Source: an uncultured Aureispira sp.
GTDB taxonomy: Bacteria; Bacteroidota; Bacteroidia; Chitinophagales; Saprospiraceae
Direction: 5' to 3'
Length of the DNA stretch: 47,672 bases
Assembly (NCBI GenBank): GCA_902727865.1
Contig: CACVAQ010000010.1
Span: 1-47,672, forward strand
Shown here: one piece after another, positions 1 through 44,921 of the stretch
Position numbering within the stretch: position 1 is the stretch's first letter
How the letters are laid out: each line of letters starts with the position of its first letter
Position numbers and translations under genes: made by a program
Notes under the pieces: model-generated
What the model was told of the DNA's origin: nothing
The model's input: only the letters and a program-made list of their open reading frames with translations
The model's database searches: none

Positions 1-809
1 CGATGACAGAAGATTACCCAGAAGTTTCAGGGGTTAATCCACAAGAATTGACAGAACTACGTACGCTTGGACAAATTGTAGATTACTTGGCTGGTAAAGC
101 TGGTGCAACGACTTCCGCTCCTGCTGCGACCGTTCAAACTGCTCCTGCTCCTATTGCGACTCCTGTTGTTAATAACCTTACTAATAATAACAACAACAAC
201 ACGGGAGGAATTAGCACAAGCAAACTAGAAGAAATTCTACTAACTGTTGTTAGCGAAAAAACTGGCTATCCTACTGAAATGTTAGAATTAGACATGGACA
301 TGGAAGCTGATTTAGGTATTGACTCTATCAAACGAGTTGAAATTTTCGGTTCGATGACAGAAGATTACCCAGAAGTTTCAGGGGTTAATCCACAAGAATT
401 AACAGAACTACGTACGCTTGGACAAATTGTAGACTACTTGGCTGGTAAAGCTGGCGCAACGACTTCCGCTGCTCCTGCTGCTAGCGTTCAAACTGCTCCT
501 GCTCCTATTGCAACTCCTGTTGTTAATAACCTTACTAATGATAACAACAACAACACGGGAGGCATTAGCACAAGCAAACTAGAAGAAATTCTACTAACCG
601 TTGTTAGCGAGAAAACTGGCTATCCTACTGAAATGTTAGAATTAGACATGGACATGGAAGCTGATTTAGGTATTGACTCCATCAAACGAGTGGAAATCTT
701 CGGTTCGATGACAGAAGATTACCCAGAAGTTTCGGGGGTTAATCCACAAGAATTAACAGAATTACGTACGCTTGGACAAATTGTAGATTACTTGACTGAA
801 AAAGCAGGT
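1..809 (+). repeat. Intragenic tandem ACP repeats, 351/354-bp period
   Basis: ATGACAGAAGATTACCCAGAAG recurs at 3, 354 and 708; copies differ mostly at synonymous positions. Confidence 0.95.
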
Positions 810-830
810 AAAAAAAAAGTCCTAGCCTAA
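1..830 (+). CDS. pfaA: PUFA synthase PfaA-like subunit, 3' end with tandem ACP domains (5'-truncated by the window)
   Basis: Repeated ACP domains with the phosphopantetheine motif DLGIDSIKRVEI and ELRTLGQIV, joined by Ala/Pro/Thr/Asn-rich linkers; followed by KR-DH, KS-CLF-AT-DH and PfaD genes. Confidence 0.92.
   Translation, partial: MTEDYPEVSGVNPQELTELRTLGQIVDYLAGKAGATTSAPAATVQTAPAPIATPVVNNLTNNNNNNTGGISTSKLEEILLTVVSEKTGYPTEMLELDMDMEADLGIDSIKRVEIFGSMTEDYPEVSGVNPQELTELRTLGQIVDYLAGKAGATTSAAPAASVQTAPAPIATPVVNNLTNDNNNNTGGISTSKLEEILLTVVSEKTGYPTEMLELDMDMEADLGIDSIKRVEIFGSMTEDYPEVSGVNPQELTELRTLGQIVDYLTEKAGKKKVLA
810..818 (+). other. A9 run, candidate -1 frameshift / transcriptional slippage site
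   Basis: GGT AAA AAA AAA GTC; the -1 frame is open from 812 straight into the 851..3352 ORF. Confidence 0.5.
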
Positions 831-850
831 CAGAACGTACAAAAGAAACT

Positions 851-3352
851 GTGGAGGAAGATGTTACCGTAAAAGCTTACCCAAAAAACTTTACAACAAC
901 ATCTTCCTTTCATGGTGTTGAACGCAACGAAATTGGTTTAAAATACTTACCTAAACCAGATTATTTGGAATTTTCTTTGCCAAATACACACCTTGCACTA
1001 GTCACTAATGATGGTTCAGAATTAACACAACAAGTCGTCCAAGCTTTAGAGCAAAAAGGAAACAAAGTTGTTGTTCTGAACCTTCATCAAGTGAACAATC
1101 CTATCCAACACAACAGTGTGACTCTTTCTTCCAATACAGACGATGCCATAAAAGCCGCTATTGAAACGGTTCAAAATCAATATGGCGCTGTTGGAACTTT
1201 CATCCACTTACATCCTCATTTTGAATTCCAAAATGGCAACTTCACCCAACACTTTGCGGTAGAAAGAGACTTAGTAAAAGCCGTCTTCCTTATTGCCAAG
1301 CACATCCAACCTGCTCTAAATGAATTGGGCAAAACAAATCGGGCTAACTTTTTAAGTGTAACTCGCTTAGATGGTCAATCTGGCTTGGGCAAACGGGGCA
1401 ATACTTCTATTGTTGGTGGTGGTTTAAATGGCTTGGTCAAATGTTTAAATTTAGAATGGTCACAAGTCTTTTGTAGAGCAGTTGATATTCAACCCGAATT
1501 AAGCACAACAAGCATTGCAGCACATATTATCAGCGAACTACACGATCCGAATCGCTCGATTATAGAAACGACGATTAGTGAAAATGGTAGAGCAATGTTA
1601 ACAGCCAAAAAAGTAGTTGTAAAAGAACATCAAGAAATTGAAACGGCTGTTAGCAATGAATCTTTATTCTTAGTGAGTGGTGGTGCTCGTGGCGTAACGG
1701 CAAATTGTGTCATTGAAATGGCTAAAGCCTTCAAAGCTAAATTCATTTTATTAGGTCGCTCCAACTTTGAGTTTGAAGTGCCTGCTTATGCTCAAAATGA
1801 GTCCGATGATGGTGCATTAAAACGTTTGATTATGACCGATATGAAGAACAAAGGTCAAAAACCAAACTTGGCAGAAGTCAAAAAGACCTTTAACAGCATT
1901 GTTGCCAAAAAAGAAATTGAAGCAACGATCCAAGCGATTAAAAAGAATGGTGGAGAAGCGGTTTACATCAAAGGCGATGTAACGGATGTTAGAACGGTAA
2001 AACCACAATTACTAGCGATCACCAAACGTTGGGGAGCGATTACGGGCATTATTCACGGTGCAGGACGTTTGGCAGACAAATACATTCAAGACAAAGCGGA
2101 ACAAGATTTCTTAAATGTTTTGACGGTAAAATTAGATGGTTTGTTAACTCTGTTGCAATGTGTTAATATTCACAAACTAGAGCATTTGGTCCTATTCTCC
2201 TCTGTTGCTGGTTTTTATGGTAATGTCGGACAAACGGATTATGCGATTGCCAATGAAATATTGAGCAAAGCGGCTCACTTGTTTAGAACCAATCATCCGA
2301 ATACACAAGTATCTGCCATCAACTGGGGCGCTTGGGATGCTGGAATGGTTAGCGATGCCTTGAAAAAGAAGTTTAAAGAAATGGGGGTTGTTTTGGTCAA
2401 CAGTGAAGGTGGACCGGCTATGATGGTGAACGAAATGAACATTCAATATGCCAACCAAGCTCAAGTCATTATTGGTGGAACGTTGCCTGCTGGCATTTCG
2501 TATACCGAAGGTGCTTTGGAAACACATCGCATTCATAGAAAGATGCTTTTAGCTGAAAATCCTTTCTTGATGCATCACGTGATTCAAGGAAACGCTGTCT
2601 TGCCTGTTGTGAATGCAGTCGGTTGGATGACAAATACCTGTGAGCAAGTCTTCCCTGATTTTAGCGTGCATATTGTAAAAGATGCGAAGCTATTTAAAGG
2701 CGTTGTTTTTGATGGTTCGGAACCAATTGATTATATCATTGAATTGAAAGAAATTCAAAAAGATGCCGATACCATTTCATTAGAAACAACGATTCTAAGT
2801 CAAGCGCCTACTGCTAAATTACCAACCTATCATTACAAAGCTCAGGTGACTTTGATGGCTAAGAAAAACAAATTGGGCTTGCCTAAATTTCAAGCCGCAC
2901 TAAGTGGCCGATATACGCCTACTGATGGAGCTGTTTTGTATAAAAATGGGGCTTTATTTCACGGGGCTTATTTCCAAGGAATTGAGCAAGTTTTAGATTG
3001 GACCGAGCAACAAATTGTGCTAAAATGTAAAGCGCCTGAAGTGCCTGCTAAAGATCAAGGTCAATTTCCAGTGATTGGAGTGAATACCTTCTTCTCGGAC
3101 ATTCAGTACCAGGGCATGGTGATTTGGGTACAACAATACAATAAGGGGGCAAAATCATTGCCTTTGTCTACCGAATCTGCCACGGTTTACAAACCTGTTC
3201 CTTTTGGAAAAGAATTGTTTGTTCATATAGAAGTCGTAGAAAGTAACGAATTCAAAATGGTGGCCAATTGCACGACTTACGATGAAAATGGCGAAGTGTA
3301 TTTGTTTACTAAGAATGCTGCGGTGACCGTTTCTAAGGAATTACAATGGTAG
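851..3352 (+). CDS. PUFA synthase ketoreductase + PKS-type dehydratase subunit (equivalent to the C-terminal part of canonical PfaA)
   Basis: KR motifs SGGARGVT, IIHGAG, FSSVAG and YAIANE; DH motif HHVIQGNAVLP (HxxxGxxxxP); GTG start. Confidence 0.9.
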   Translation: MEEDVTVKAYPKNFTTTSSFHGVERNEIGLKYLPKPDYLEFSLPNTHLALVTNDGSELTQQVVQALEQKGNKVVVLNLHQVNNPIQHNSVTLSSNTDDAIKAAIETVQNQYGAVGTFIHLHPHFEFQNGNFTQHFAVERDLVKAVFLIAKHIQPALNELGKTNRANFLSVTRLDGQSGLGKRGNTSIVGGGLNGLVKCLNLEWSQVFCRAVDIQPELSTTSIAAHIISELHDPNRSIIETTISENGRAMLTAKKVVVKEHQEIETAVSNESLFLVSGGARGVTANCVIEMAKAFKAKFILLGRSNFEFEVPAYAQNESDDGALKRLIMTDMKNKGQKPNLAEVKKTFNSIVAKKEIEATIQAIKKNGGEAVYIKGDVTDVRTVKPQLLAITKRWGAITGIIHGAGRLADKYIQDKAEQDFLNVLTVKLDGLLTLLQCVNIHKLEHLVLFSSVAGFYGNVGQTDYAIANEILSKAAHLFRTNHPNTQVSAINWGAWDAGMVSDALKKKFKEMGVVLVNSEGGPAMMVNEMNIQYANQAQVIIGGTLPAGISYTEGALETHRIHRKMLLAENPFLMHHVIQGNAVLPVVNAVGWMTNTCEQVFPDFSVHIVKDAKLFKGVVFDGSEPIDYIIELKEIQKDADTISLETTILSQAPTAKLPTYHYKAQVTLMAKKNKLGLPKFQAALSGRYTPTDGAVLYKNGALFHGAYFQGIEQVLDWTEQQIVLKCKAPEVPAKDQGQFPVIGVNTFFSDIQYQGMVIWVQQYNKGAKSLPLSTESATVYKPVPFGKELFVHIEVVESNEFKMVANCTTYDENGEVYLFTKNAAVTVSKELQW

Positions 3353-3392
3353 TGTAGAGTATTTTAAATGGTAGTGTAGAGAATTTTAAATG
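3345..3392 (+). repeat. 22-bp tandem duplication spanning the KR-DH stop codon
   Basis: AATGGTAGTGTAGAGTATTTTA followed by AATGGTAGTGTAGAGAATTTTA, then AATG. Confidence 0.9.
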
Positions 3393-3447
3393 TTTAATTC
3401 TTAATGTTAAATGATTTAATGTTGGAATTAAAACTTAAAAATAAAAT

Positions 3448-3953
3448 ATGAAAGAAAATGTCGTTTTAGAAAAGTCTTTTACCTTCTCTTTGAAAATTAT
3501 AGCGTTGTATAAAACTAATACTCCGTTGATTTTTTAGTTTTTCTATGAAAAACATAAAAAAGCATCTTGCATTAGTTTGATTATCAGCTTTTTAATACTT
3601 TGGCAATTAAAAAATCATCTTGCTGATAATCAAACTAATACGATTTTTCAACGGAGTAATGTAAAACGTTACAAGCAGAAAAAGAATTTGTTATTTCAAA
3701 GCAGCTATTGCGCTCTGCTACCAGTATTGGTGCAAACGCAAATGAAGCATCTGCTGCTCAAACAAAGAAAGATTTTATTGCTAAAATGGCGATTTCTTCC
3801 AAAGAAGCTAGAGAAACACATTATTGGCTAAGACTATTACAAAAAAGCCAATTAGTACCTTTAGACTATAATGATTATATTTTACAAATAGAGGAATTAA
3901 TTCGAATTATAACAGCTATTGTAAAGACATCACAAAATAATCTAAAAAGGTAA
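3448..3953 (+). pseudogene. Four-helix-bundle protein (23S rRNA IVP / TIGR02436-like) disrupted by an insertion
   Basis: MKENVVLEKSFTFSLKIIALYK from 3448 hits TAG at 3535-3537; TLQAEKEFVISKQLLRSATSIGANANEA...KEARETHYWLRLL resumes after 3667; deleting 3516-3667 restores a 117-aa ORF. Confidence 0.88.
3516..3661. mobile_element. 146-bp non-autonomous MITE-like element (E1) with 6-bp target duplication
   Basis: Terminal IR TACTCCGTTGA (3519-3529) / TCAACGGAGTA (3648-3658); inner 18-bp perfect IR 3571-3588 / 3622-3639; TAAAAC direct repeat at 3510-3515 and 3662-3667; interrupts a recognisable gene. Confidence 0.85.
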
Positions 3954-4026
3954 AATGTTGATTTCTTAATGTTGATGTTTTTTCATAATTCAACATTAAA
4001 TTCAACATTAAACATTATAATAACAT
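3954..4026. repeat. AATGTT/AACATT short-repeat hairpin downstream of the four-helix-bundle gene
   Basis: AATGTTGA twice, then TCAACATT twice plus AACATT and AACAT; complementary AATGTT units also lie upstream at 3389-3423. Confidence 0.7.
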
Positions 4027-7000
4027 ATGAAAATAGCAATCATAGGAATGTCTGGCTTGTTTCCTGGGTCTTCTACCAATAAAGAATTTTGGGAGAACCT
4101 AGTTGGCGAGAAGAATTTAATAAAAATGGCGACAGAGGAAGATTTTGGCGTATCGCCAGATACCTTCTTTCAGTCCGACAAAGGCGTGGTTGATAAATGC
4201 TATTCGCTGCGTGGTGGTTATATTCGAAACTTTGAATTTGATCCTACGGGGTATAAATTGCCTAGTGACTTTGTTGCCAAGCAAGATAAGCTCTACCAAT
4301 GGTCTTTGTATGTTGCCAAAGAAGCTTTGAAAGATAGTGGTTATTACGATAGTAAAACAGCTTTAGAAAAATGTGGTTTGGTCTTAGGAAATCTTTCGTT
4401 TCCGACGGGCTCCTCGCACAAACTAATGTCTAGTGTTTATACACAAACGACCGAAAAAGCACTTCAAGAATTATTAGAGGATGATAATTTCAAAATAGAA
4501 TCGCATAAATACGAGCAGCCTGACAATGAAGTTTTGTGTGACACGCCTTCCAAAATGGTTTGTAAAGCGTTGGGATTGGGAGGCAATCATTATGCCTTAG
4601 ATGCCGCTTGTGCCACCTCTCTTTATGCTATAAAGTTAGCTTGTGATGATTTGATGACGGGCAAATCCGACTTGATGCTGGCAGGAGCCGTTTGTGCTTC
4701 TGACCAACTATTTATACACATGGGCTTTTCTATCTTCCATGCCTATGCACCGCACGATGAGAAATTTGCGCCACTGGACAGCAATTCTGGTGGTTTGGTT
4801 TCTTCTGAAGGGGCTGGAATCGTTGTCTTAAAACGATTGGACGATGCGCAATGGGATGGCGATAAGATTTTGGGAGTTATTGGGGGCATTGGTTTGTCAA
4901 ACGATGGTCGTGGTAAGTTTTTGCTAAGTCCGAATCCTAAAGGTCAAAAACTGGCTTTTGAGCGAGCTTATTTGAAAGACGATGTCTTGCCTAAAAACAC
5001 CAGTTACCTAGAATGTCATGCTACAGGAACGCCTTTGGGCGATGTAACAGAAATGAATTCTATTTCTGATTTCTTTCAACAACATCATGCAGCCCCACTT
5101 TTAGGTTCTGTCAAGTCTAACATGGGGCATTTGTTGACAGCAGCAGGAATGACTGGTTTATTCAAAGTCTTGTTGTCTATGGAAAAAGGCTTTATTCCTC
5201 CAAATGTAAATCTAACAGAAGCCGTTCAGACTGAAAATCAATTCATCAAGGACGAACATATTATCACAAGAGCCACCCCATGGAAAGGCAATCAAGCAGG
5301 GATTAATTCTTTTGGTTTTGGAGGAACAAATGCGCACATGGTGATTCAGGCTTATGAAAAAGAAAAACCAGCAGCTTATAAGTTGCTCAGCATGGAAGCG
5401 ATGTCTATTGTTGGAATGGAAGCTTATTTTGGAGATTGCACCAATTTAGATGATTTTTATGCGTCTATTTATAATGGCAAACAACACTTTAGAGCATTGC
5501 CCGCTGAGCGTTGGAAAGGATTTGATGCCAATGAAGCGCTCTTAAAAGAATACGGTTTCAAGAATGGAAAAGCGCCTAAAGGCGCTTATATTGATCGTTT
5601 TGAAATTGATTTGTTGCGTTATAAAATTCAACCCAAAGAAGCGGAAACTTTAGAACCTCAACAAGCGCTTATTTTGAGTGTGGCGGATAAAGCTTTGCAA
5701 GATGCAGGCATTGACGAAAGTCAAAACATTGCGGTTTTAATTGCCATGGAATCAGAATTAGCGATTCATCATTATTTATCTCGTTGGGATAGTGTCTGGC
5801 AAATCGAAGAAGCGATTGAACGCAGCAATATTATTCTAACTGAGGAAAAGAAAAAAGAGTTAAAGGAACAATGTAAAAACGCCTTATATTTCAGAGAAGG
5901 TGGACAAACGCCTAGTCAGCATACTAGTTTTGTTGGTAACATTATGGCAAGTCGAATTGCGGCTTTGTGGGATTTTTCTGGTCCTGCTTTTACGGTTTCT
6001 TGTGGTGAGAACTCTGTTTTCAAAGCACTAGAAGTTGCTCAAAATATGCTTTCCTTAGGCGAAGTCGATGCGGTCGTTGTTGGTGGGGTTGATTTTTGTG
6101 GTGGTTTAGAAAGCGTCTTATTACGCAATCAAAAAAATCCTGCGAGTACGGTTCCGAATCCAAGTTTGAGCCTCAATCAAAATGATGCTGGTTGGCTCGT
6201 CGGTGAAGGTGCTGGAGCGATTGTTCTCAAACGCAGCAAAGAGGCTAAAAAGGACAAAATTTATGCAACGATTGACCACATTGGTAAAGCAAAAACGGAA
6301 CTCAACATTGGCTATCAAGAATTGGTGGCGAGTGGTGTCGCAGCACAGGACACGCAAGAAATTGCACAATTATTAAAAACCAAACAAGAGCAAGAGGTTG
6401 CTTTGGGTTCGGTCAAAACATCTATTGGCAACACTTGTGCTGCCTCAGGAATTGCCAGCTTGATTAAGACGGCCTTGTGTCTTCACCATCGTTTTATTCC
6501 TGGTATTCCGAATTGGAAAGCACCTAAATTAGCAGAAGAATTTGCGGGAACCAATTATTACTTCCCTGCAAAATCTCGCCCTTGGCTGTTGAGTAACAAT
6601 CAAGAAAAGCGACGCGCAGCGATCAATGGTTTGGACGGCCTTCAAATTCAATTAACAGAATCGCCTGTTTATCAAGAAAAAGAAACGCCCTTAACCAACG
6701 GAAGAGTTACGAATATTATTCTGATAAAAGGGAATAGTGAAACGGCTCTGAATACGCAAATTCAGGTCTTAGAAAAAGCCCTTCTAGAGGGCAAAGCCTT
6801 AAGCCAAATTGCTGCACAGTCTTATGCCTCTACTAAGCAACAAAAATATACTTATTGTATTTCTATACTGGCTCGCAACAAAAAAGCCTTTGCACAAGAA
6901 TTAAAATTCATCAAGCTAGGTTTGCCCAATGCCATTCTAGAGAAAAAAGAAATTAAAACACCTAAAGGTTCTTACTTTACAGGAAATCCTCTAGGAACAA

Positions 7001-10000
7001 AAGGAAAAGTAGCCTTTGTTTACCCTGGTTCTGCGGCGGCATACAATGGCTTGGGGCAAGATATTTTCCAACTGTTCCCTCAACTGCACACGCATTTTGA
7101 AGAGAAGGTTCCTAATATGTCAGAATTTGTTGGCACTCAATATTTACATCCAAAAACACAAACAGCGGACACGGCGACGCCTAACATTCACAAAGATGCG
7201 ATTGCCATGATGTCCGCAGGTGTTTTTTCTTCGGCTATTTACACCCATATTTTACGTGCTTATTTCAAACTAGAGCCTCAAATCGCTTTTGGTTATAGTA
7301 TGGGAGAATCTGCCAGTATGTGGTATTCTCTAAATGTTTGGAGTCCGACAAGAACTAGTGTTTTCAAAAATTCAAGTCTCTTTCAAAACGAATTTTCTGG
7401 CGACTTAAATTTGCTAGCAAAAGTTTGGGATACCACTTCTGAAGAGGCAAAAGAACGTTGGGTAAGCCTCATTTTATTAGCGCCTAGAGCCAAGGTTGAA
7501 GCATTGGTTGCTCGTTATGACAAGACCTATCTCAGTTTTGTAAACACCAATAATGAGGTAATTATTTCAGGAGAAAAAGCGACTTGCCTATCTATTGTAA
7601 GCCAACTGAACTGCCATTCGATAGAAGTACCGTTTCAAAATGTGATTCATCATGACTTTTGCAAAATGGCTCATGATGACTTGATGGAAATGCACGAATT
7701 TTCGTTAGAAGAAAAACCTAACATTGATTTTTACTCTAGCCTTACTTTAGAAAAATTGCCTTTTGACAGCAATATAATTGCACGCAATTCATCCAAAATT
7801 TGCTATCAAGCAGTTGATTTCCCTAGAACAGTGGAAACTATTTATGACAAAGGCGCTAGAATTTTCATAGAATTAGGAGCCAATGCGACTTGCACTTCTT
7901 GGATTAAAGAGAATTTGGCAACGAAGGAGCATCTAGCGATTAGCATGAACAAAAAGGGCAAATCGGACGCACAAAACATCTTGGAAGCGATGGCGCAATT
8001 GCTCAGTCATGGTGTTGCTTTGGACTTGGATATTTTATATAAAAACATCCTATTAGAAGCCGAGCCTCGTTCGTTCAAAAAGGAAATTATCACAGGCGGA
8101 AAACGTATCTTTGATGTCTTGCTTAGCGAAACTAATAAAGCTAGCTTTGCAAACCTCCAACGAAAAGCAATCGCCAAAGAACCTACTTTAGCCGTAGTCG
8201 ATTCAGAAACAAACCTTGTAGCAACAAGGCTTGAATCGTCCAATACGAAACAAAAAAATATTTCAATAGCTCGTGCTCAGCAATTGTCTGAGACACAAAA
8301 ATCAATCGTCACCTTGGAAACAAAAACAGTTGAAACAATGCACAACAAAACCTCCAATCCAACGATTGGCGAAAACGGTTTGTTGCTTCAAGACTTTGCC
8401 TCTGGAGCGCAATTAAAAGGAAAAACTATTATCTTTTCTCAAGAAGACTTACAAGAATTTGCCGAAGGTAAAATTGGAAAAGTCTTTGGTCCTGATTACG
8501 ATATTATTGACAGTTATAGCCGACGAGTCATGCTGCCAATGGATCCCTATTTATTGGTTAGCCGTGTGACGGGTTTGAACGCTAAAAAAGGCGAATACAA
8601 GCCTTCTACCATGCAAACAGAGTATGACATTCCTTATAATGCTTGGTTTACGACTGATGGGCAAATTCCTTGGGCGGTTTCGGTTGAGTCTGGTCAATGT
8701 GATTTGTTGTTGATTTCTTATTTGGGGATTGACTTTGAAAACAAAGGCGATTTGGTGTATCGTTTATTGGATTGCACCTTGACTTTTGTAGACGACTTAC
8801 CATTTGAAGGGCAGACTTTGCGGTATGATATTTCGATCAATTCGTTTGTAAAAAATGGAGATAATCTATTGTTCTTCTTTAGTTATGACTGTTATGTAGA
8901 AGATCGCTTGGTCTTAAAAATGCGTGGTGGCTGTGCTGGTTTCTTTACCGACGAGCAATTGGAAGAGGGCTTAGGATTGATTTACACAAAAGAGGAATTG
9001 CAAGCAAAAGTAAATGTAAAAAAACCTAAATTTACGCCTTTATTAAACACTACCAAAACAAGCTTTTCTAAAGAAGATTTGCACCATTTGATTGATGGTA
9101 ATATTGAAAAATGTTTTGGCAATATTTCTTATTATGCGAATGGACGGAACCAGTCTTTGTGTCTGCCTTCGGAGCAAATTTTAATGCTCGACCGAATTAC
9201 TTCTGTTGATTTACAAGGCGGTGCTTATGGTTTGGGCTATATCGTAGCTGAAAAAGATTTGAGCCCGAACGACTGGTATTTCCCTTGCCATTTCCGTGAC
9301 GACGAAGTACTTGCAGGCTCTTTGCAAGCAGAAGGTGGTGGAAATTTGTTGCGTTTCTTGATGTTAATGCTTGGATTACAACGCTTGACGAAAGACGCTC
9401 GTTACCAACCGATCTATGATTTGCCTCAAAAAGTACGTTGTCGCAAGCAGGTGGTGCCAGGAAAAGATACCAAATTAGTGTACAAATTAGAAGTAAAAGA
9501 AATTGGCTTGGTTCCAAATCCGTATATTATCGCTGATTTAGAAATCATTTCTGATGGCGTGATTACGGTTCATTTTGAGAACTTAGGTTTACAATTAAGA
9601 GAAAAAGACAATCCTAAATACTTAGAGCAAGAAGCTGGTGTTAAAATTTCGCCCCGCTCTGAAGGCGCTCTGTTGAATGAGTTGGACATCACAAATTTTG
9701 CCTTAAGTGACTTATCCAAGGCTTTTGGTCCCGACTTCTCTTGTTATGATGGAAGAACGGTTTCTCGTCAGCCCAACACCGATTTACAATTGATTTCTAG
9801 AGTATTAAAAATAGAAGGAGAACGCTTGTATTTCAAGAAACCTTCTACGATTTATGCAGAGTATGATGTCCCTGTAGATGCTTGGTATTATGAGCAAAAT
9901 TCTACGAAGACCATGCCTTATTCTGTCTTAATGGAAATCGCTTTGCAACCTTGTGGTTTGTTGGGTGCTTATATGGGATCTACCTTGAAGTTCTCTGACA

Positions 10001-10818
10001 AAAACTTATTCTTCCGTAATTTGGATGGTGATGGAGAAATGTTTGACTTGCCAATGGGAACCGATTGGAGAGGAAAAACGATTCACAACAAATCTGTCTT
10101 AGTTTCTTCGGTCTCTTTGGCTGGAACGGTTTTGCAAAATTATACTTTCGAATTAAGTATAGATGGTCAGGTATTCTACAAAGGAAAATCTTCTTTTGGA
10201 TTCTTTCCTGGCGAGGCATTAGCGCAGCAAGTTGGGTTGGATAATGGAACAGATGTTCCTGCTTGGTATCAAAGTCAAAATTTACAAGCAAAGGATTATT
10301 TGTCTATTAATTTAGATTCTTTGTATGGTAAAATGAAGTTATTCAAAGCACCTGCGGACAAACCGCATTATCACTTGGCGGGAGATCAATTGTTATTATT
10401 AGATCAACTAAAGATTGTCAAAGATGGCGGAAAATATAGCAAAGGCTATGTTCATGCTAGTAAGATTGTCAATACGTATGATTGGTTCTTTACTTGCCAT
10501 TTCTACCAAGATCCTGTAATGCCTGGTTCTTTGGGGGTTGAAGCCATTCTACAAGCCATGCAAACCTTTGCTTTGCAACAAAATTTAGGTAAAGATTTTA
10601 AATCGCCTAAATTTGTGCAGTTAGACCACCACAAAACTTCTTGGAAATACCGTGGTCAAATCTTGTTGGGGGTAGAAAACATGCACTGTGAAGTGCATTT
10701 CAAAACCATTGAAAAACGAGGAAATACCTTGGCAATTATTGGCGATGCGTTTCTTTGGAATGAAGGAACTCGCATTTATCAAGTTACTGATTTAGCCTTG
10801 GGTATTGTGGAGGCTTAA
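4027..10818 (+). CDS. pfaC: PUFA synthase PfaB/C-type subunit: KS-CLF-AT-DH(FabA)-DH(FabA)
   Basis: KS triad DAACATS / HATGT / GHLLTAAG; second KS-like (CLF) domain; AT GYSMGE; two FabA-type DH motifs CHFRDDEVLAGSL and CHFYQDPVMPGSL. Confidence 0.93.
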   Translation: MKIAIIGMSGLFPGSSTNKEFWENLVGEKNLIKMATEEDFGVSPDTFFQSDKGVVDKCYSLRGGYIRNFEFDPTGYKLPSDFVAKQDKLYQWSLYVAKEALKDSGYYDSKTALEKCGLVLGNLSFPTGSSHKLMSSVYTQTTEKALQELLEDDNFKIESHKYEQPDNEVLCDTPSKMVCKALGLGGNHYALDAACATSLYAIKLACDDLMTGKSDLMLAGAVCASDQLFIHMGFSIFHAYAPHDEKFAPLDSNSGGLVSSEGAGIVVLKRLDDAQWDGDKILGVIGGIGLSNDGRGKFLLSPNPKGQKLAFERAYLKDDVLPKNTSYLECHATGTPLGDVTEMNSISDFFQQHHAAPLLGSVKSNMGHLLTAAGMTGLFKVLLSMEKGFIPPNVNLTEAVQTENQFIKDEHIITRATPWKGNQAGINSFGFGGTNAHMVIQAYEKEKPAAYKLLSMEAMSIVGMEAYFGDCTNLDDFYASIYNGKQHFRALPAERWKGFDANEALLKEYGFKNGKAPKGAYIDRFEIDLLRYKIQPKEAETLEPQQALILSVADKALQDAGIDESQNIAVLIAMESELAIHHYLSRWDSVWQIEEAIERSNIILTEEKKKELKEQCKNALYFREGGQTPSQHTSFVGNIMASRIAALWDFSGPAFTVSCGENSVFKALEVAQNMLSLGEVDAVVVGGVDFCGGLESVLLRNQKNPASTVPNPSLSLNQNDAGWLVGEGAGAIVLKRSKEAKKDKIYATIDHIGKAKTELNIGYQELVASGVAAQDTQEIAQLLKTKQEQEVALGSVKTSIGNTCAASGIASLIKTALCLHHRFIPGIPNWKAPKLAEEFAGTNYYFPAKSRPWLLSNNQEKRRAAINGLDGLQIQLTESPVYQEKETPLTNGRVTNIILIKGNSETALNTQIQVLEKALLEGKALSQIAAQSYASTKQQKYTYCISILARNKKAFAQELKFIKLGLPNAILEKKEIKTPKGSYFTGNPLGTKGKVAFVYPGSAAAYNGLGQDIFQLFPQLHTHFEEKVPNMSEFVGTQYLHPKTQTADTATPNIHKDAIAMMSAGVFSSAIYTHILRAYFKLEPQIAFGYSMGESASMWYSLNVWSPTRTSVFKNSSLFQNEFSGDLNLLAKVWDTTSEEAKERWVSLILLAPRAKVEALVARYDKTYLSFVNTNNEVIISGEKATCLSIVSQLNCHSIEVPFQNVIHHDFCKMAHDDLMEMHEFSLEEKPNIDFYSSLTLEKLPFDSNIIARNSSKICYQAVDFPRTVETIYDKGARIFIELGANATCTSWIKENLATKEHLAISMNKKGKSDAQNILEAMAQLLSHGVALDLDILYKNILLEAEPRSFKKEIITGGKRIFDVLLSETNKASFANLQRKAIAKEPTLAVVDSETNLVATRLESSNTKQKNISIARAQQLSETQKSIVTLETKTVETMHNKTSNPTIGENGLLLQDFASGAQLKGKTIIFSQEDLQEFAEGKIGKVFGPDYDIIDSYSRRVMLPMDPYLLVSRVTGLNAKKGEYKPSTMQTEYDIPYNAWFTTDGQIPWAVSVESGQCDLLLISYLGIDFENKGDLVYRLLDCTLTFVDDLPFEGQTLRYDISINSFVKNGDNLLFFFSYDCYVEDRLVLKMRGGCAGFFTDEQLEEGLGLIYTKEELQAKVNVKKPKFTPLLNTTKTSFSKEDLHHLIDGNIEKCFGNISYYANGRNQSLCLPSEQILMLDRITSVDLQGGAYGLGYIVAEKDLSPNDWYFPCHFRDDEVLAGSLQAEGGGNLLRFLMLMLGLQRLTKDARYQPIYDLPQKVRCRKQVVPGKDTKLVYKLEVKEIGLVPNPYIIADLEIISDGVITVHFENLGLQLREKDNPKYLEQEAGVKISPRSEGALLNELDITNFALSDLSKAFGPDFSCYDGRTVSRQPNTDLQLISRVLKIEGERLYFKKPSTIYAEYDVPVDAWYYEQNSTKTMPYSVLMEIALQPCGLLGAYMGSTLKFSDKNLFFRNLDGDGEMFDLPMGTDWRGKTIHNKSVLVSSVSLAGTVLQNYTFELSIDGQVFYKGKSSFGFFPGEALAQQVGLDNGTDVPAWYQSQNLQAKDYLSINLDSLYGKMKLFKAPADKPHYHLAGDQLLLLDQLKIVKDGGKYSKGYVHASKIVNTYDWFFTCHFYQDPVMPGSLGVEAILQAMQTFALQQNLGKDFKSPKFVQLDHHKTSWKYRGQILLGVENMHCEVHFKTIEKRGNTLAIIGDAFLWNEGTRIYQVTDLALGIVEA

Positions 10819-10850
10819 TGTTGATTGGTTGTTTGACAACTCAAAGACTC
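10816..10850 (+). repeat. 35-bp motif starting at the pfaC stop codon (copy 1)
   Basis: TAATGTT-N6-TTGTTTGAcAACTCAAAGACTC; 28/35 identical to 12514-12548. Confidence 0.75.
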
Positions 10851-10893
10851 AACTTATATCCAATTAAAAAAACAGATTAAACAATATAAAAAC

Positions 10894-12516
10894 ATGATTA
10901 CGTTCACAGGAATAAAGCAAAAGCTATATTGGAAAGGCTCGCCTAGAGCCATTTCTTTTGATGCTGCTGGCATGGAAACTAAATTAAAAAACACCGCAGA
11001 CAATTGTTTCGTGGTCTTAGATCATGCCAACCGAATTGGCGTTGCCAATGCAGGTGAATTAACGACAGAAGGCAGCGGTTTACAAGTTTTGGGCATGGTG
11101 GCTCCAATGACGGCACAACAACTCGGTGATACAACCTTTAGAAGAGATTATAATCTAAAGTATGCTTACAAAACGGGGGCAATGGCAAATGGCATTGCTT
11201 CTGAAGCCTTGGTTATTGCGATCGGAAAAGCAGGTTTGCTAGGTTCTTTTGGAGCAGCAGGCTTGGTTCCGAACCGAGTAGAGCAAGCAATTAATACCAT
11301 ACAAGATGCCTTACAAAATGAGTCTTATGCCTTTAATTTGATTCATAGCCCCAATGAGCCTGCACTAGAAGAAGGTGCGGTCAAGCACTTTTTGGCTAGA
11401 GGCGTTCATGTGGTAGAGGCTTCGGCATTTTTGAGTTTGACGATCAACATCGTGCATTATCGAGTGGCTGGTTTGAGCCAAGATGCAGATGGCAATGTTT
11501 TGATTCAAAACCGAGTGATTGCTAAAATTTCACGAAAAGAAGTTGCAAGTCATTTCATGCAGCCTGCTCCAAAAAAGTACTTGGATAAATTATTGGCGGC
11601 TGGAAAAATCACGCCTTTACAAGCAGCATTAGCAGCAAAAGTTCCAATGGCAGATGACATTACCGTAGAAGCCGATTCTGGCGGGCATACCGACAATCGT
11701 CCTTTGGTGGCCTTGTTGCCTTCTATCATTCGTTTGCGCAATGAATTGCAATTGGTGCATCACTTTGAAACGCCTATTCGCATTGGTGCTGCTGGGGGAA
11801 TTGGAACTCCAGAGTCTGCCCTATCTGCCTTTATGATGGGGGCTGCTTATATTGTCACAGGTTCTGTCAATCAGGCTTGTGTAGAAGCGGGTACGTCTGA
11901 GCATGTTCGTAAATTATTAGCGAAAGTTGCTCAAACGGATGTGATGATGGCTCCTGCCTCGGATATGTTTGAAATGGGGGTTGAATTACAAGTCCTCAAG
12001 CGTGGAACCTTGTTTGGTCCTAGAGCTAAGAAATTGCATGAGTATTACATGAAGTACGATTCTATTGATGACATTCCTACAGCAGAACGGGAAAAATTAG
12101 AAAAACAAACCTTTAGAAAACCTTTGGAAGATGTTTGGCAAGGTTGTATTGAGTTTTTCCAAGAGCGTGATCCACACCAAATTGAGCGTGCAAAAGGTAA
12201 TCCTAAACGAAAAATGGCTTTGATTTTCCGTTGGTATTTGGGCTTGTCTTCGAACTGGGCCAATGCTGGTGTTCAAGATCGCTTGACAGATATGCAAATC
12301 TGGTGTGGTCCTGCAATGGGTTCTTTCAACGACTGGGTGAAAGGAACGTATTTAGAAGCGTATGAAAATCGTACGGCTGCGGATGTCGCTGGACATATTA
12401 TGGCTGGCGCTGCTTATTTGTATCGTGTACAGGCCTTACAAACGCAAGGAATACACTTGCCAATAGATTGGGCTAGTTATGTTCCTTCAGAGAAATATAT
12501 TGCTAATTTAGTGTAA
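10894..12516 (+). CDS. pfaD: PfaD enoyl reductase (FabK/NMO-like flavoprotein)
   Basis: GAMANGIAS, VEADSGGHTDNRP, MAPASDMFEMGVELQVLKRG and QIWCGPAMGSFN are typical of PfaD. Confidence 0.95.
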   Translation: MITFTGIKQKLYWKGSPRAISFDAAGMETKLKNTADNCFVVLDHANRIGVANAGELTTEGSGLQVLGMVAPMTAQQLGDTTFRRDYNLKYAYKTGAMANGIASEALVIAIGKAGLLGSFGAAGLVPNRVEQAINTIQDALQNESYAFNLIHSPNEPALEEGAVKHFLARGVHVVEASAFLSLTINIVHYRVAGLSQDADGNVLIQNRVIAKISRKEVASHFMQPAPKKYLDKLLAAGKITPLQAALAAKVPMADDITVEADSGGHTDNRPLVALLPSIIRLRNELQLVHHFETPIRIGAAGGIGTPESALSAFMMGAAYIVTGSVNQACVEAGTSEHVRKLLAKVAQTDVMMAPASDMFEMGVELQVLKRGTLFGPRAKKLHEYYMKYDSIDDIPTAEREKLEKQTFRKPLEDVWQGCIEFFQERDPHQIERAKGNPKRKMALIFRWYLGLSSNWANAGVQDRLTDMQIWCGPAMGSFNDWVKGTYLEAYENRTAADVAGHIMAGAAYLYRVQALQTQGIHLPIDWASYVPSEKYIANLV

Positions 12517-12548
12517 TGTTTTAAGCTTGTTTGAGAACTCAAAGACTC
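12514..12548 (+). repeat. 35-bp motif starting at the pfaD stop codon (copy 2)
   Basis: TAATGTT-N6-TTGTTTGAgAACTCAAAGACTC. Confidence 0.75.
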
Positions 12549-12641
12549 TGCGTAGCTAATTTTTGCCCTAGCGGACTCTTTTTCATAGTAGGCTGACAAA
12601 AGGTTCAAAGAGCCTCTTTTGGGGGTAAACTTTTATAAAGT

Positions 12642-12720
12642 AGGCTATTTTTTGGGGGAATGTAGAACACTCTACTGTAGTGTTTATATAGCTTTCCTAA
12701 AAAAATAGCCTCTTTTTTTT
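12642..12720. terminator. Long hairpin with T-tract between convergent genes; core of a larger degenerate palindrome
   Basis: AGGCTATTTTTT ... AAAAAATAGCCT with inner AACACT/AGTGTT, followed by a T run. Confidence 0.55.
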
Positions 12721-12852
12721 GAGAAGTTGCGTTTTTTGATCTTGCTTTAAGAACTAGGTTCTTGTATTATATGATGCAAAGGAAGAAGTCCAAGCCATTT
12801 TCAAGGATTTTGCACTAGGGCTTTCGTTAGATCTTGGCACAAAAATTAGGCT

Positions 12853-13383
12853 CTATTCAAAAGTTGTTGTCCCTTCTTTTTTAAAATAGTTATTGTATAA
12901 ATCTTGAAGGTCTAAGGCTATAAATATTTGTTTACCCTTTCCAAATCTTTTTAGTCTATGTATCGCTGTGCTCTTTATTTTAGACTTAAATATAAAGAGG
13001 TATTTAGAGTCTATTGGGATTTCTGAGCCTAATAATACCCTAGAGCCATTAACCTTTTTCATAAGATCTTTCTCATGGATATTATTAATACTCTTACAGT
13101 TTAATTTATATTCACACAAAATAAAAGCATTTATTTTTCGATTTACTCTTTCTTGTACACCAAACCCAACATCCATTGTTGAATTTCTAGAAGATTTGTT
13201 CTTAGCTAATTCAACGGCATCTAAATTCAAAGCCATTTCATTAAAAAAGGGTGTTTTTATTTTTTTATCTGATTCTTGTTTCGTTATATCATCTAACAAC
13301 TCCAAACAACTTTTGTATTGTTCTGACAAAGGATGATTTTCAGTTGTTTCCAAACAATAAACCCATTTATTCGGTGTTGCCAT
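12853..13383 (-). CDS. Hypothetical protein with a PD-(D/E)xK nuclease-like motif
   Basis: STMDVGFG ... FILCEYKLN resembles the D...ExK core; ATG at 13383 overlaps the ATPase stop, suggesting coupling; the longer 13434 start lies inside the ATPase. Confidence 0.6.
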   Translation of the reverse strand: MATPNKWVYCLETTENHPLSEQYKSCLELLDDITKQESDKKIKTPFFNEMALNLDAVELAKNKSSRNSTMDVGFGVQERVNRKINAFILCEYKLNCKSINNIHEKDLMKKVNGSRVLLGSEIPIDSKYLFIFKSKIKSTAIHRLKRFGKGKQIFIALDLQDLYNNYFKKEGTTTFE

Positions 13384-14686
13384 ACAAATCCATTCTTTCA
13401 AAGGCAATATTGAAGGATTCAAAAATAGCTTCAATATCAGTTCCTAGTTCTTTGTAATTATATTTGAACTCTTCTCCTGTTTGTTCTGCTAGATAATAAT
13501 GTAATTTATCATCTACTTGCTCCTTTTCAGAGATATATTTAATCGCACTAACCATATCAGGATGATGACTTGCAATTAAAAAACGCACACCTACATGTTT
13601 GTGCAATAAGACAATCAATCGGGCGTACTCTACTACCCATTGTGGGTGCAAATGCGCTTCGGGTTCGTCTATTATTAATAAGGTTTTATTCGTTAAAAAG
13701 CCATTTTTGAATAATATTTGGAGGACTGCGAAAGATTTTATTCCTGTGGCGCATTCTAATAAATTGAATTCTTTTCCGTCTTTTCGTTTGTAAATAAACA
13801 TATTAGAAAGAAGTACTGTTTGTTCAGACAGATTAGCTTCTCCATTTAATATATCTTCCTTGAATATTTTATCTATATTCTTATCATTTATTCTAGTACC
13901 ATGCTTACTGAGAACACTGTTCAAATATTCCCAGTGTTTTCTTCTCCCTGTAAACTCAGAAACACCAAGCATCATAGGGCTATCTATATAAGCTGTATTT
14001 CTTATTGAATAAAATGGTGAAATATTTTTTTTATCTGGTTCTATTATCGCTTCTCCATATTCCTTTACAACATAATTATTAGGTGGCAGTGGATTATCGT
14101 AAAAAGCCAATTCTAACTCTTCATGCAAAAAAGTAACGGGTCTTGACTTTTTTAGATTTTCAGTATTTTGCCTTTTTTCAAGTACTGCTTTTCTTAGTTT
14201 TTCTAGTAGTTCTTTAACAGTATCTTTATCTTCTAACGCTTCCGATCTCAATACATCTCTTAGTATATACTTAATTCTAGGTATGTTTTTTACTTTTTCT
14301 CGACCAGAATAGCTTACTAGCGTATCTACCAAGTCATTAATTGTTTTAACTACTATAAGTATACCAAGACGGTCTAAGTTGACATCTACAATCAATTTTC
14401 TAAGCTCACTAAATTCATTTTCATTAATAACATTATAAGTAAAATGTAAATCTCTAAATAGTGTGATTAAGGTATTTGTTATTTCATGTAAGTATTCCTT
14501 TAACTTGCCCTCCACAATCGCATCAAACTCAATAGAAGTCTTAAAGATATAATAAGCCAATTTAGAAATCGTACTTTTCCCACAACCATTCTCTCCTGCT
14601 AATACCGTAATACCATCCAAGATGATATCTGCTTGTTCGATTGCACGGATATTCCTCAAACTTATTTTTAAATCGTGTTCTTTCAT
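13367..14686 (-). CDS. ABC-type ATPase (AAA_15/AAA_21; AbiEii/OLD/AriA-like)
   Basis: N-terminal LRNIRAI, Walker A GENGCGKST, helical insert, signature-like CATGIKS, Walker B IIDEPEAHLHP, H-loop IASHHP; no membrane segments. Confidence 0.88.
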   Translation of the reverse strand: MKEHDLKISLRNIRAIEQADIILDGITVLAGENGCGKSTISKLAYYIFKTSIEFDAIVEGKLKEYLHEITNTLITLFRDLHFTYNVINENEFSELRKLIVDVNLDRLGILIVVKTINDLVDTLVSYSGREKVKNIPRIKYILRDVLRSEALEDKDTVKELLEKLRKAVLEKRQNTENLKKSRPVTFLHEELELAFYDNPLPPNNYVVKEYGEAIIEPDKKNISPFYSIRNTAYIDSPMMLGVSEFTGRRKHWEYLNSVLSKHGTRINDKNIDKIFKEDILNGEANLSEQTVLLSNMFIYKRKDGKEFNLLECATGIKSFAVLQILFKNGFLTNKTLLIIDEPEAHLHPQWVVEYARLIVLLHKHVGVRFLIASHHPDMVSAIKYISEKEQVDDKLHYYLAEQTGEEFKYNYKELGTDIEAIFESFNIAFERMDLYGNTE

Positions 14687-14702
14687 TTAGCATTCTTTTT
14701 TT

Positions 14703-14710
14703 CAAAGATA
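14703..14710 (-). promoter_or_regulatory. Bacteroidota -7 promoter box for the ATPase
   Basis: TATCTTTG (TAnnTTTG) on the minus strand, 16 nt upstream of the ATG at 14686. Confidence 0.5.
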
Positions 14711-14741
14711 AATGATTTTTATAGATAAACGAAACTTCTTG

Positions 14742-15197
14742 CTACTGAGCAATATCCCGAATAATTTTCAAATGATGCTCGGTATGAATTTCCAAAAACA
14801 AAATGGCTTTGTCTCGACTCAATAAGCCAAAGAAAGGGTGTTCGAAGTACGCCTTAGGTTTTAAATGCACAGCTGTCTCTATTGACTTTCTTGACTTTTG
14901 GATAAAATCTAACAAAGCTTCCTCCCTTAGATCTTCGTCCACAGGGCTTACGGCTTTAGGGGCTTTTGCTTTACCTCTAGGAATTTTTTGGGTCGTCAAA
15001 ATGAACATTCTCATAAAGTTGAACTGCCACTTATATTCTTTAGGATTGGATTTTGCCATGCTTGTTGTCACAGCATTAATAACCTTCAAGACGTGGGCTA
15101 TTTGCCAACTAATCGTAGCCGTTGAAACCGCTTCGTTTGAAAGGTTTTTTTGACTAATATAAGATTCCAATTCGTCTATTGCTTTTAATAATTTCAT
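14742..15197 (-). CDS. DinB/DUF1569-like four-helix protein
   Basis: WQIAHVL near the N-terminus; HPFFGLL...HTEHHL at the C-terminus. Confidence 0.8.
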   Translation of the reverse strand: MKLLKAIDELESYISQKNLSNEAVSTATISWQIAHVLKVINAVTTSMAKSNPKEYKWQFNFMRMFILTTQKIPRGKAKAPKAVSPVDEDLREEALLDFIQKSRKSIETAVHLKPKAYFEHPFFGLLSRDKAILFLEIHTEHHLKIIRDIAQ

Positions 15198-44605: not shown

Positions 44606-44921
44606 CGTTATTTTTTTTCGTTGATTCGTCTAGGCTTTGGAAAATTAGTTTCAAGTATATTTCAATCAATTCATACCCTTCAACAACTAATTTAGTTCCC
44701 CTAAGAACAAAAATAAACACTAGGCTTAAAAAAGCTAGTGTTTATTGTATTTTTTATATAAAAATCTTGTTTTTATATCTGTTTTGTATGTTAATAATTA
44801 AGTCGTCCAATGAAGCAGATGCGAAAACACTCCCTACCTACTGTTATGAAAAAGAAAAAGAGTAGGCTGTGGCAAAAATCAGCTGCACTGCGTCTTTAAG
44901 TTGTCAAAGACCCTTAAATAT

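Follow-up and report, generated by a model that had tools for sequence, protein, structure and literature searches.

Two overlapping genes lie on the minus strand of the window, by which we mean the whole 47,672-nt stretch of DNA that was analysed. The first (13367-14686) encodes an ABC-type ATPase of 439 aa that carries ABC motifs and matches Pfam AAA_21/AAA_15, and the second (12853-13383) encodes a small basic protein of 176 aa, reading from MATPNKW, with a predicted restriction-endonuclease-like fold. This start was preferred over a 193-aa version from an in-frame TTG at 13434 because three of the four closest homologues begin MAT-x-NKW, and a plus-strand ORF (12968-13336) was set aside as an antisense shadow of the partner gene. 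The end of the ATPase gene overlaps the start of its partner by 17 nt (13367-13383, minus strand), which likely reflects translational coupling, and the pairs at homologous loci mostly overlap or lie no more than 10 nt apart. Upstream, 16 nt before the ATPase ATG, stands a TATCTTTG promoter box (14703-14710, minus strand) that matches TAnnTTTG, which we take to be the consensus of the Bacteroidota -7 promoter box, with an imperfect TTTC 20 nt further upstream. A lone box of this kind carries little weight because TAnnTTTG occurs 78 times in the window against 69 expected. Among 75 homologous loci, 43 carry the motif in the 105 nt upstream of the ATPase gene, whereas shuffling gives 6.7 and the reverse strand 10, and the claim that the pair has a TATCTTTG box of its own is thereby upheld.

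The pair also differs from its surroundings in composition. The GC content of 12853-14710 is 0.306, compared with 0.371 for the genome, a value as low as this being found in 0.9% of 2500 equal-sized blocks, and the pair falls below its flanks in 57 of 59 homologous loci; the AT-richness noted in the original prediction is therefore real. Both genes sit in a variable interval of 2225 nt (12517-14741) between pfaD (10894-12516, plus strand; Pfam PfaD_N with FabD insert) and a DinB/DUF1569-like gene (14742-15197, minus strand), on which pfaD converges. The stretch up to this point (3-12516) is a pfa-type polyunsaturated fatty acid synthase cluster, with pfaD as its last gene and the others judged from their ORF sequences. 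An imperfect hairpin repeat of ~60 bp, REP-like and outside the cassette, was observed at 12520-12584, just past the pfaD stop, and again at 44854-44918, with ~80 copies genome-wide (blastn).

A comparison with 14 same-genus genomes, 10 of which carry the DinB-like gene, reveals an empty site in four (G002, G003, G006 and G007), where pfaD and the DinB-like gene are separated by a gap of ~160-490 nt that contains no gene. Because two further genomes, G005 and G009, hold unrelated inserts of ~4.4 kb and ~1.2 kb at this position, the site may be an insertion hotspot; the arrangement differs in G001, G013 and G014, and the contig ends in G012. The low GC together with the empty site in four relatives supports the view that the pair is foreign to its surroundings, and we conclude that it is an insertion into a variable site, a horizontally moved cassette. 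Single-protein queries, for which few first-look candidates were scored, did not find the partner in the 14 same-genus genomes and found it in 1 of 40 relatives. The ATPase profile had no match at E<=1e-60 in 120 family genomes, and the partner profile none in 400 other genomes of the phylum; because no more than a few first-look candidates are scored in such searches, they do not prove absence from relatives. A distant ATPase paralogue was seen among housekeeping genes in one of the 14 same-genus genomes (G002, L157:1504-3448), accompanied by a different partner of ~200 aa with the pattern D...SKSCD...GEMK...D-x-K. IMG/VR and the phage and plasmid collections yielded no match to the partner, and the ATPase appears in viral, phage and plasmid collections only as distant relatives.

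The ATPase has the complete motif set of an ABC ATPase of the OLD-like defence type, comprising a Walker A (G31-ENGC-GKST, G31-T39), a signature ATGIKS (313-318; family form ATG-x-KS), a Walker B/D-loop IIDEPEAHLH (338-347; family form DEPE-x-HLHP at 340-348) and an H-loop histidine, H374. It is soluble by its GRAVY of -0.29, matches AAA_21 (E=1.4e-16) and AAA_15 (E=8e-16), and ends in a conserved family tail, IF-x-SFNIA-x(2)-R-x(3)-YG. Of 7999 candidates that were scored, at least 2189 are homologues at E<=1e-30, and its best PADLOC matches are defence ATPases, with HEC-02A on top. The ORFs, the Pfam matches, the motifs and the partner's pI of 9.2 thus agree with the initial description of a soluble 439-aa ABC ATPase overlapping a basic protein of ~176 aa.

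The partner belongs to no Pfam, NCBIfam or PADLOC family, one chance row aside. Searches with TOPRIM and HNH models from Pfam, PADLOC and NCBIfam gave no partner match, which bears out the earlier statement that neither motif can be recognised; the PADLOC models of AriB, PtuB and AbiLii matched 0 of 141 partner members at E<=0.01, and no Pfam family of these kinds was matched by the members either. The MD-x(n)-ILCEYK pattern reported for the protein is present as M70-D71 and ILCEYK (88-93). In the partner alignment, D71 and K110 are invariant (141/141 each), D55 is found in 140/141 and E58 in 128/141, position 91 is E or D in all 141 (D in 20), and position 93 is K or R in all 141 (K in 99, R in 42). 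S114 is also conserved, and these acidic and lysine residues form the most conserved columns of a protein whose mean column identity is 25%.

An AlphaFold2 model built from the 141-sequence alignment (pLDDT 94.6) places strands at 50-53, 72-78, 85-92, 124-131 and 154-157 and helices at 104-118 and 134-147, in the strand-helix order of the restriction-endonuclease core. The PD-(D/E)xK layout can be followed in this model, with D71 ahead of strands 72-78 and 85-92, then E91-x-K93, and then helix, strand, helix and strand. VIA-align over 48161 chains ranked Upx first (Z 6.3, rmsd 3.8, 119 aligned), below both the Z 7-8 typical of chance-level best matches for this tool and the bar of Z 8, followed by Can2 (Z 5.1), N.BspD6I, FokI, Cdn1, EcoO109I, Hna and Card1. 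Upx and Hna are described as PD-(D/E)xK systems in the available part of bioRxiv 10.1101/2025.07.10.664194. TOPRIM and HNH folds are absent among the VIA-align rows listed and may still occur beyond those rows. Foldseek of the model against PDB and BFVD returned nothing at E<=0.001 (best E=0.069), the partner profile against PDB sequences gave one chance row, and the named Atlas clusters stayed at or below 0.80 (PDDEXK_11 0.79, MunI 0.76), to be taken as leads only. From its topology, the placement of the motif and the consistent top VIA-align rows, the partner is predicted to have a PD-(D/E)xK-like fold. The proposal of a PD-(D/E)xK-like small protein is thus favoured by a confident model, with weak structural matches.

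As to the extent of the family, the partner profile detects 369 representatives at 50% identity clustering, and the ATPase search confirmed 256 stretches in GTDB species genomes, with locus statistics resting on the best 80 of these 256 loci (by record title, 72 from Bacteroidota and 7 from other phyla). The ORF next to the ATPase matches the partner profile in 78 of the best 80 loci, and in the other 2 the contigs end within 163 nt; pairing was assessed mainly from the ATPase side, and four of the 78 neighbouring partners are short, at 77-119 aa, and could be broken. There is no conserved third gene, every other family being present in at most 9 of 80 loci (integrase-like genes in 8 of 80), and no methylase is co-conserved with the pair among the neighbour families of the 80 loci. 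The pair is accordingly co-conserved as a two-gene unit, as had been anticipated. Longer partners of 261-272 aa also exist, and both loci located from this long form carry the ATPase upstream. The long form more broadly spans ~260-290 aa (e.g., P0246, P0264 and P0274) with ~100 aa extra at the C-terminus, and it sits behind the same ATPase family (L152:364-1230, L153:1444-1899).

The pairwise identities of ATPase and partner co-vary (Spearman 0.69 over 70 full-length pairs, reached in 0 of 500 permutations), a value that is inflated by kinship. Across 10 hand-picked close pairs, dN was below dS for both genes in all 10, and the pair is under purifying selection. In an ATPase tree of 32 rows, 15 of them family rows drawn from a subset of loci, the family forms one group with a support of 93/100, just below the starred bar, and stands apart from the HEC-02A-like, prophage-borne and WonA rows, the branches of WonA and AbiLi being long and unsure. 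Copies from other phyla are nested among those of Bacteroidota, and the starred subclade that holds the window copy is not the one that holds an Aureispira copy. Judged from the names of homologues and from kinship rows, the host is probably a member of the Saprospiraceae close to Aureispira. Such findings describe a large family, found in marine, soil and gut Bacteroidota, that is not called by the tested PADLOC 2.0, Pfam and NCBIfam partner models.

The genomic context of the family was investigated by taking the two closest called genes to either side of the pair at the 80 loci (274 of 278, after 4 overlapping antisense calls were dropped), with a PADLOC threshold of E<=1e-15; the control genes came from 5 further genomes of the phylum, sampled at 20 fixed positions. 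PADLOC matches were not enriched among the neighbours, at 19 of 274 (6.9%) against 10 of 147 (6.8%) in what is a crude test with a small control, and the expectation that homologues lie close to defence genes was not borne out. The 19 matching neighbours, which are spread over 16 of the 80 loci, include AbiEii, type I, IIG and IV restriction genes, PD-T4-3, a NucC-like gene and AbiL, and also generic helicases and ATPases. The family suggests that not every candidate defence cassette lies within a defence island.

We interpret the pair, at a probability of about 0.6, as a self-contained cassette that is likely an abortive-infection system of the WonAB/HEC-02 type, in which the ATPase gates the predicted nuclease. 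The anti-phage function is inferred by analogy with WonAB, for which the accessible part of the report describes a defence that needs both genes and both active sites, a complex predicted at the ATPase's C-terminal extensions, and an activated WonB that stops translation and leaves DNA intact, with tRNA or rRNA proposed as its target (PMC12137116). By the same analogy, the ATPase would act as a dimer, bind the small predicted nuclease at its conserved C-terminal tail and gate its activity, until a phage cue triggers the ATPase and releases the nuclease. The activated partner would then cut host nucleic acid through a predicted active site formed by D71 and (E/D)91-x-(K/R)93 on adjacent strands, with D55, E58 and K110 possibly assisting. 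Its target may be RNA (tRNA or rRNA, as for WonB), which we consider somewhat likelier than DNA because no methylase accompanies the pair. Counting against this mechanism are the R that replaces the motif lysine in 42 of 141 partners, the weak structural matches, the lack of enrichment among neighbours and the lack of a close prophage or plasmid relative.

A broader and more tentative possibility is that ABC-ATPase-gated nucleases make up a larger superfamily, still unnamed, to which the pair belongs as a widespread branch in Bacteroidota. The superfamily would share a D...D...E-x-K...K site, with a second invariant lysine standing in for part of the classic motif. The branch would move as solitary cassettes with their own promoter outside defence islands, where guilt-by-association screens would therefore miss them, and would abort infection by cutting a host RNA.

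Other explanations were weighed against the gated-nuclease reading. The pair could be a toxin-antitoxin or addiction cassette in which the ATPase sequesters a toxic nuclease, with selfish persistence or a stress role and no phage role. Its solitary insertion among housekeeping genes, its own promoter box, its patchy spread and the lack of defence-gene enrichment would all suit such a cassette, which we nevertheless consider unlikely, since searches of plasmids, the place where addiction modules accumulate, gave no copy of the pair, and since simple sequestration was ruled out for WonAB, whose ATPase is needed for toxicity according to the part of PMC12137116 available. Direct restriction, in which modified or foreign incoming DNA would be cut by an NTPase-driven nuclease in a cell that survives, is consistent with the DNA nucleases among the closest solved folds, with the basic character of the partner and with the lack of a co-conserved methylase, which suits modification-dependent cutting. 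This explanation appears doubtful, however, given that a 176-aa partner is too small for a separate recognition domain and that the closest assayed analogue acts on translation rather than on DNA (PMC12137116, same part). There is only a slim chance that the partner lacks catalysis and serves as an adaptor with a nuclease-like fold, the effector being the ATPase or a host factor; the D at position 91, the R at position 93 and the weak structural matches speak for it, but K110 and four acidic positions show little or no variation in an otherwise divergent protein and therefore fit a metal-binding active site. A housekeeping DNA-repair or RNA-processing pair, to which the weak similarity of the ATPase to SMC_N, Rad50 and RecF models might point, is scarcely credible beside the empty searches of 400 phylum genomes (partner) and 120 family genomes (ATPase), the foreign GC and the empty site in relatives.

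The original prediction of an undescribed ATPase-gated module stands only in part: no partner model of a named system matches, but the pair is not undescribed as a kind, because pairs of an ABC ATPase and a PD-(D/E)xK protein have been published and phage-tested, as WonAB (PMC12137116) and HEC-02 (bioRxiv 10.1101/2024.01.29.577857). The comparators named at that time, PARIS, Septu and AbiL, are also less close than these two. Together with Menshen, they share the logic of an ABC ATPase sensor with an effector, and the family ATPase matches the PADLOC models of NsnB, AriA, PtuA and AbiLi in the core only; no partner matches the AriB, PtuB, AbiLii or Menshen models. Menshen, in the part of PMC12065111 available, has a third gene, NsnA (ParB-DUF262), and an inPIN-containing NsnC, whereas at the family loci every neighbour family is confined to 9 of 80 or fewer. 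Membership of these four systems thus fails on the partner or on the third gene.

PD-T4-4 and PDC-M47 also combine an ABC ATPase and a predicted PD-(D/E)xK partner. The family ATPase matches PD-T4-4_A partially (57.8 bits, residues 267-380), but 0 of 141 partners match the PD-T4-4 models in this comparison at the level of models. PDC-M47B, likewise compared by model, matches 1 of 141 partners (E=5e-4), and searches for PDC-M47B and PD-T4-4_A loci gave no match in 201 genomes each, the controls giving none either. Purified PD-T4-4 is reported to have cut none of the DNA substrates assayed (bioRxiv 10.1101/2025.07.10.664194, in part). A prophage-borne sister family from IMG/VR (L085-L097), also without a PADLOC name, has ATPases of 442-478 aa that can be aligned to the present family across 367 columns (probability 99.9) and partners of 203-248 aa that carry D...D...E-x-K...K in register with D55, D71, E91-K93 and K110 (probability 55.8, E=1e-4); it differs in an ATPase identity of ~25% and in forming a separate clade. 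The partners of this sister family read KSPD...F(I/V)EFKEG...KIHEG, and the sister family was also seen on an Acinetobacter plasmid.

WonAB shares the two-gene design of an ABC ATPase with a small PD-(D/E)xK-type partner, which in WonB is a variant nuclease with the order D...D...E-x-K (PMC12137116, in part). The pair is nevertheless not a member, because the family signatures (HLHPQW, ECATG, PDMVSA, PDMISA, HPQWIV and DEPEAHL) occur 0 times in supplementary tables 4-5 of that report, sought in the first 400 characters of each table cell, before which limit the motifs fall, as against 265 occurrences of the control EEPEAHL, and because the profiles barely align. The partner profiles align at 0.7% (hhalign), WonB has Q where the family has K110 in the register we infer, and the family ATPase aligns with WonA over 41 N-terminal columns only. 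A counterpart of the essential R182 of WonA (IPA-x-R) is also absent, the presumably equivalent family strand reading YID(S/T)P instead.

HEC-02 is the nearest named system. As described by Payne et al. in the accessible part of bioRxiv 10.1101/2024.01.29.577857, it consists of an ABC ATPase followed by a PD-(D/E)xK protein of ~170 aa, the gene order of the present pair, and its defence requires both genes. Its HEC-02A is the top PADLOC match of the family ATPase (84 bits, residues 277-400), the ATPase profiles align with probability 99.5 over 133 C-terminal columns, and the D, E-x-K and K of HEC-02B-like proteins stand in register with D71, E91-x-K93 and K110 of the family. In contrast, the partner profiles align with a probability of 1.2% (E=0.044, with a 10-sequence HEC-02B-like profile), PADLOC gives no HEC-02B match among the 141 partner members, and membership was rejected on the ATPase, since HEC-02A-like proteins of 339-380 aa score 190-494 bits over the full length of the model and form a separate clade, compared with the partial stretch matched by the 439-aa window ATPase. 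PADLOC PDLC04146, which is labelled HEC-02B, matches the ATPase and not the partner; the label may be swapped in that copy. Neither a name nor an experiment for the family was found in the literature, mostly open-access text, no PADLOC 2.0 partner model gives it a name, and the available part of PMC12137116 places WonAB itself among wider operons of the type 'OLD-ABC ATPase + novel REase', citing Krishnan et al. 2020. The pair is likely an unnamed family of known architecture, which Krishnan et al. 2020 may list among ABC-ATPase operons, and its kind is the known design of an ABC ATPase with a PD-(D/E)xK nuclease that WonAB, HEC-02 and PD-T4-4 share.
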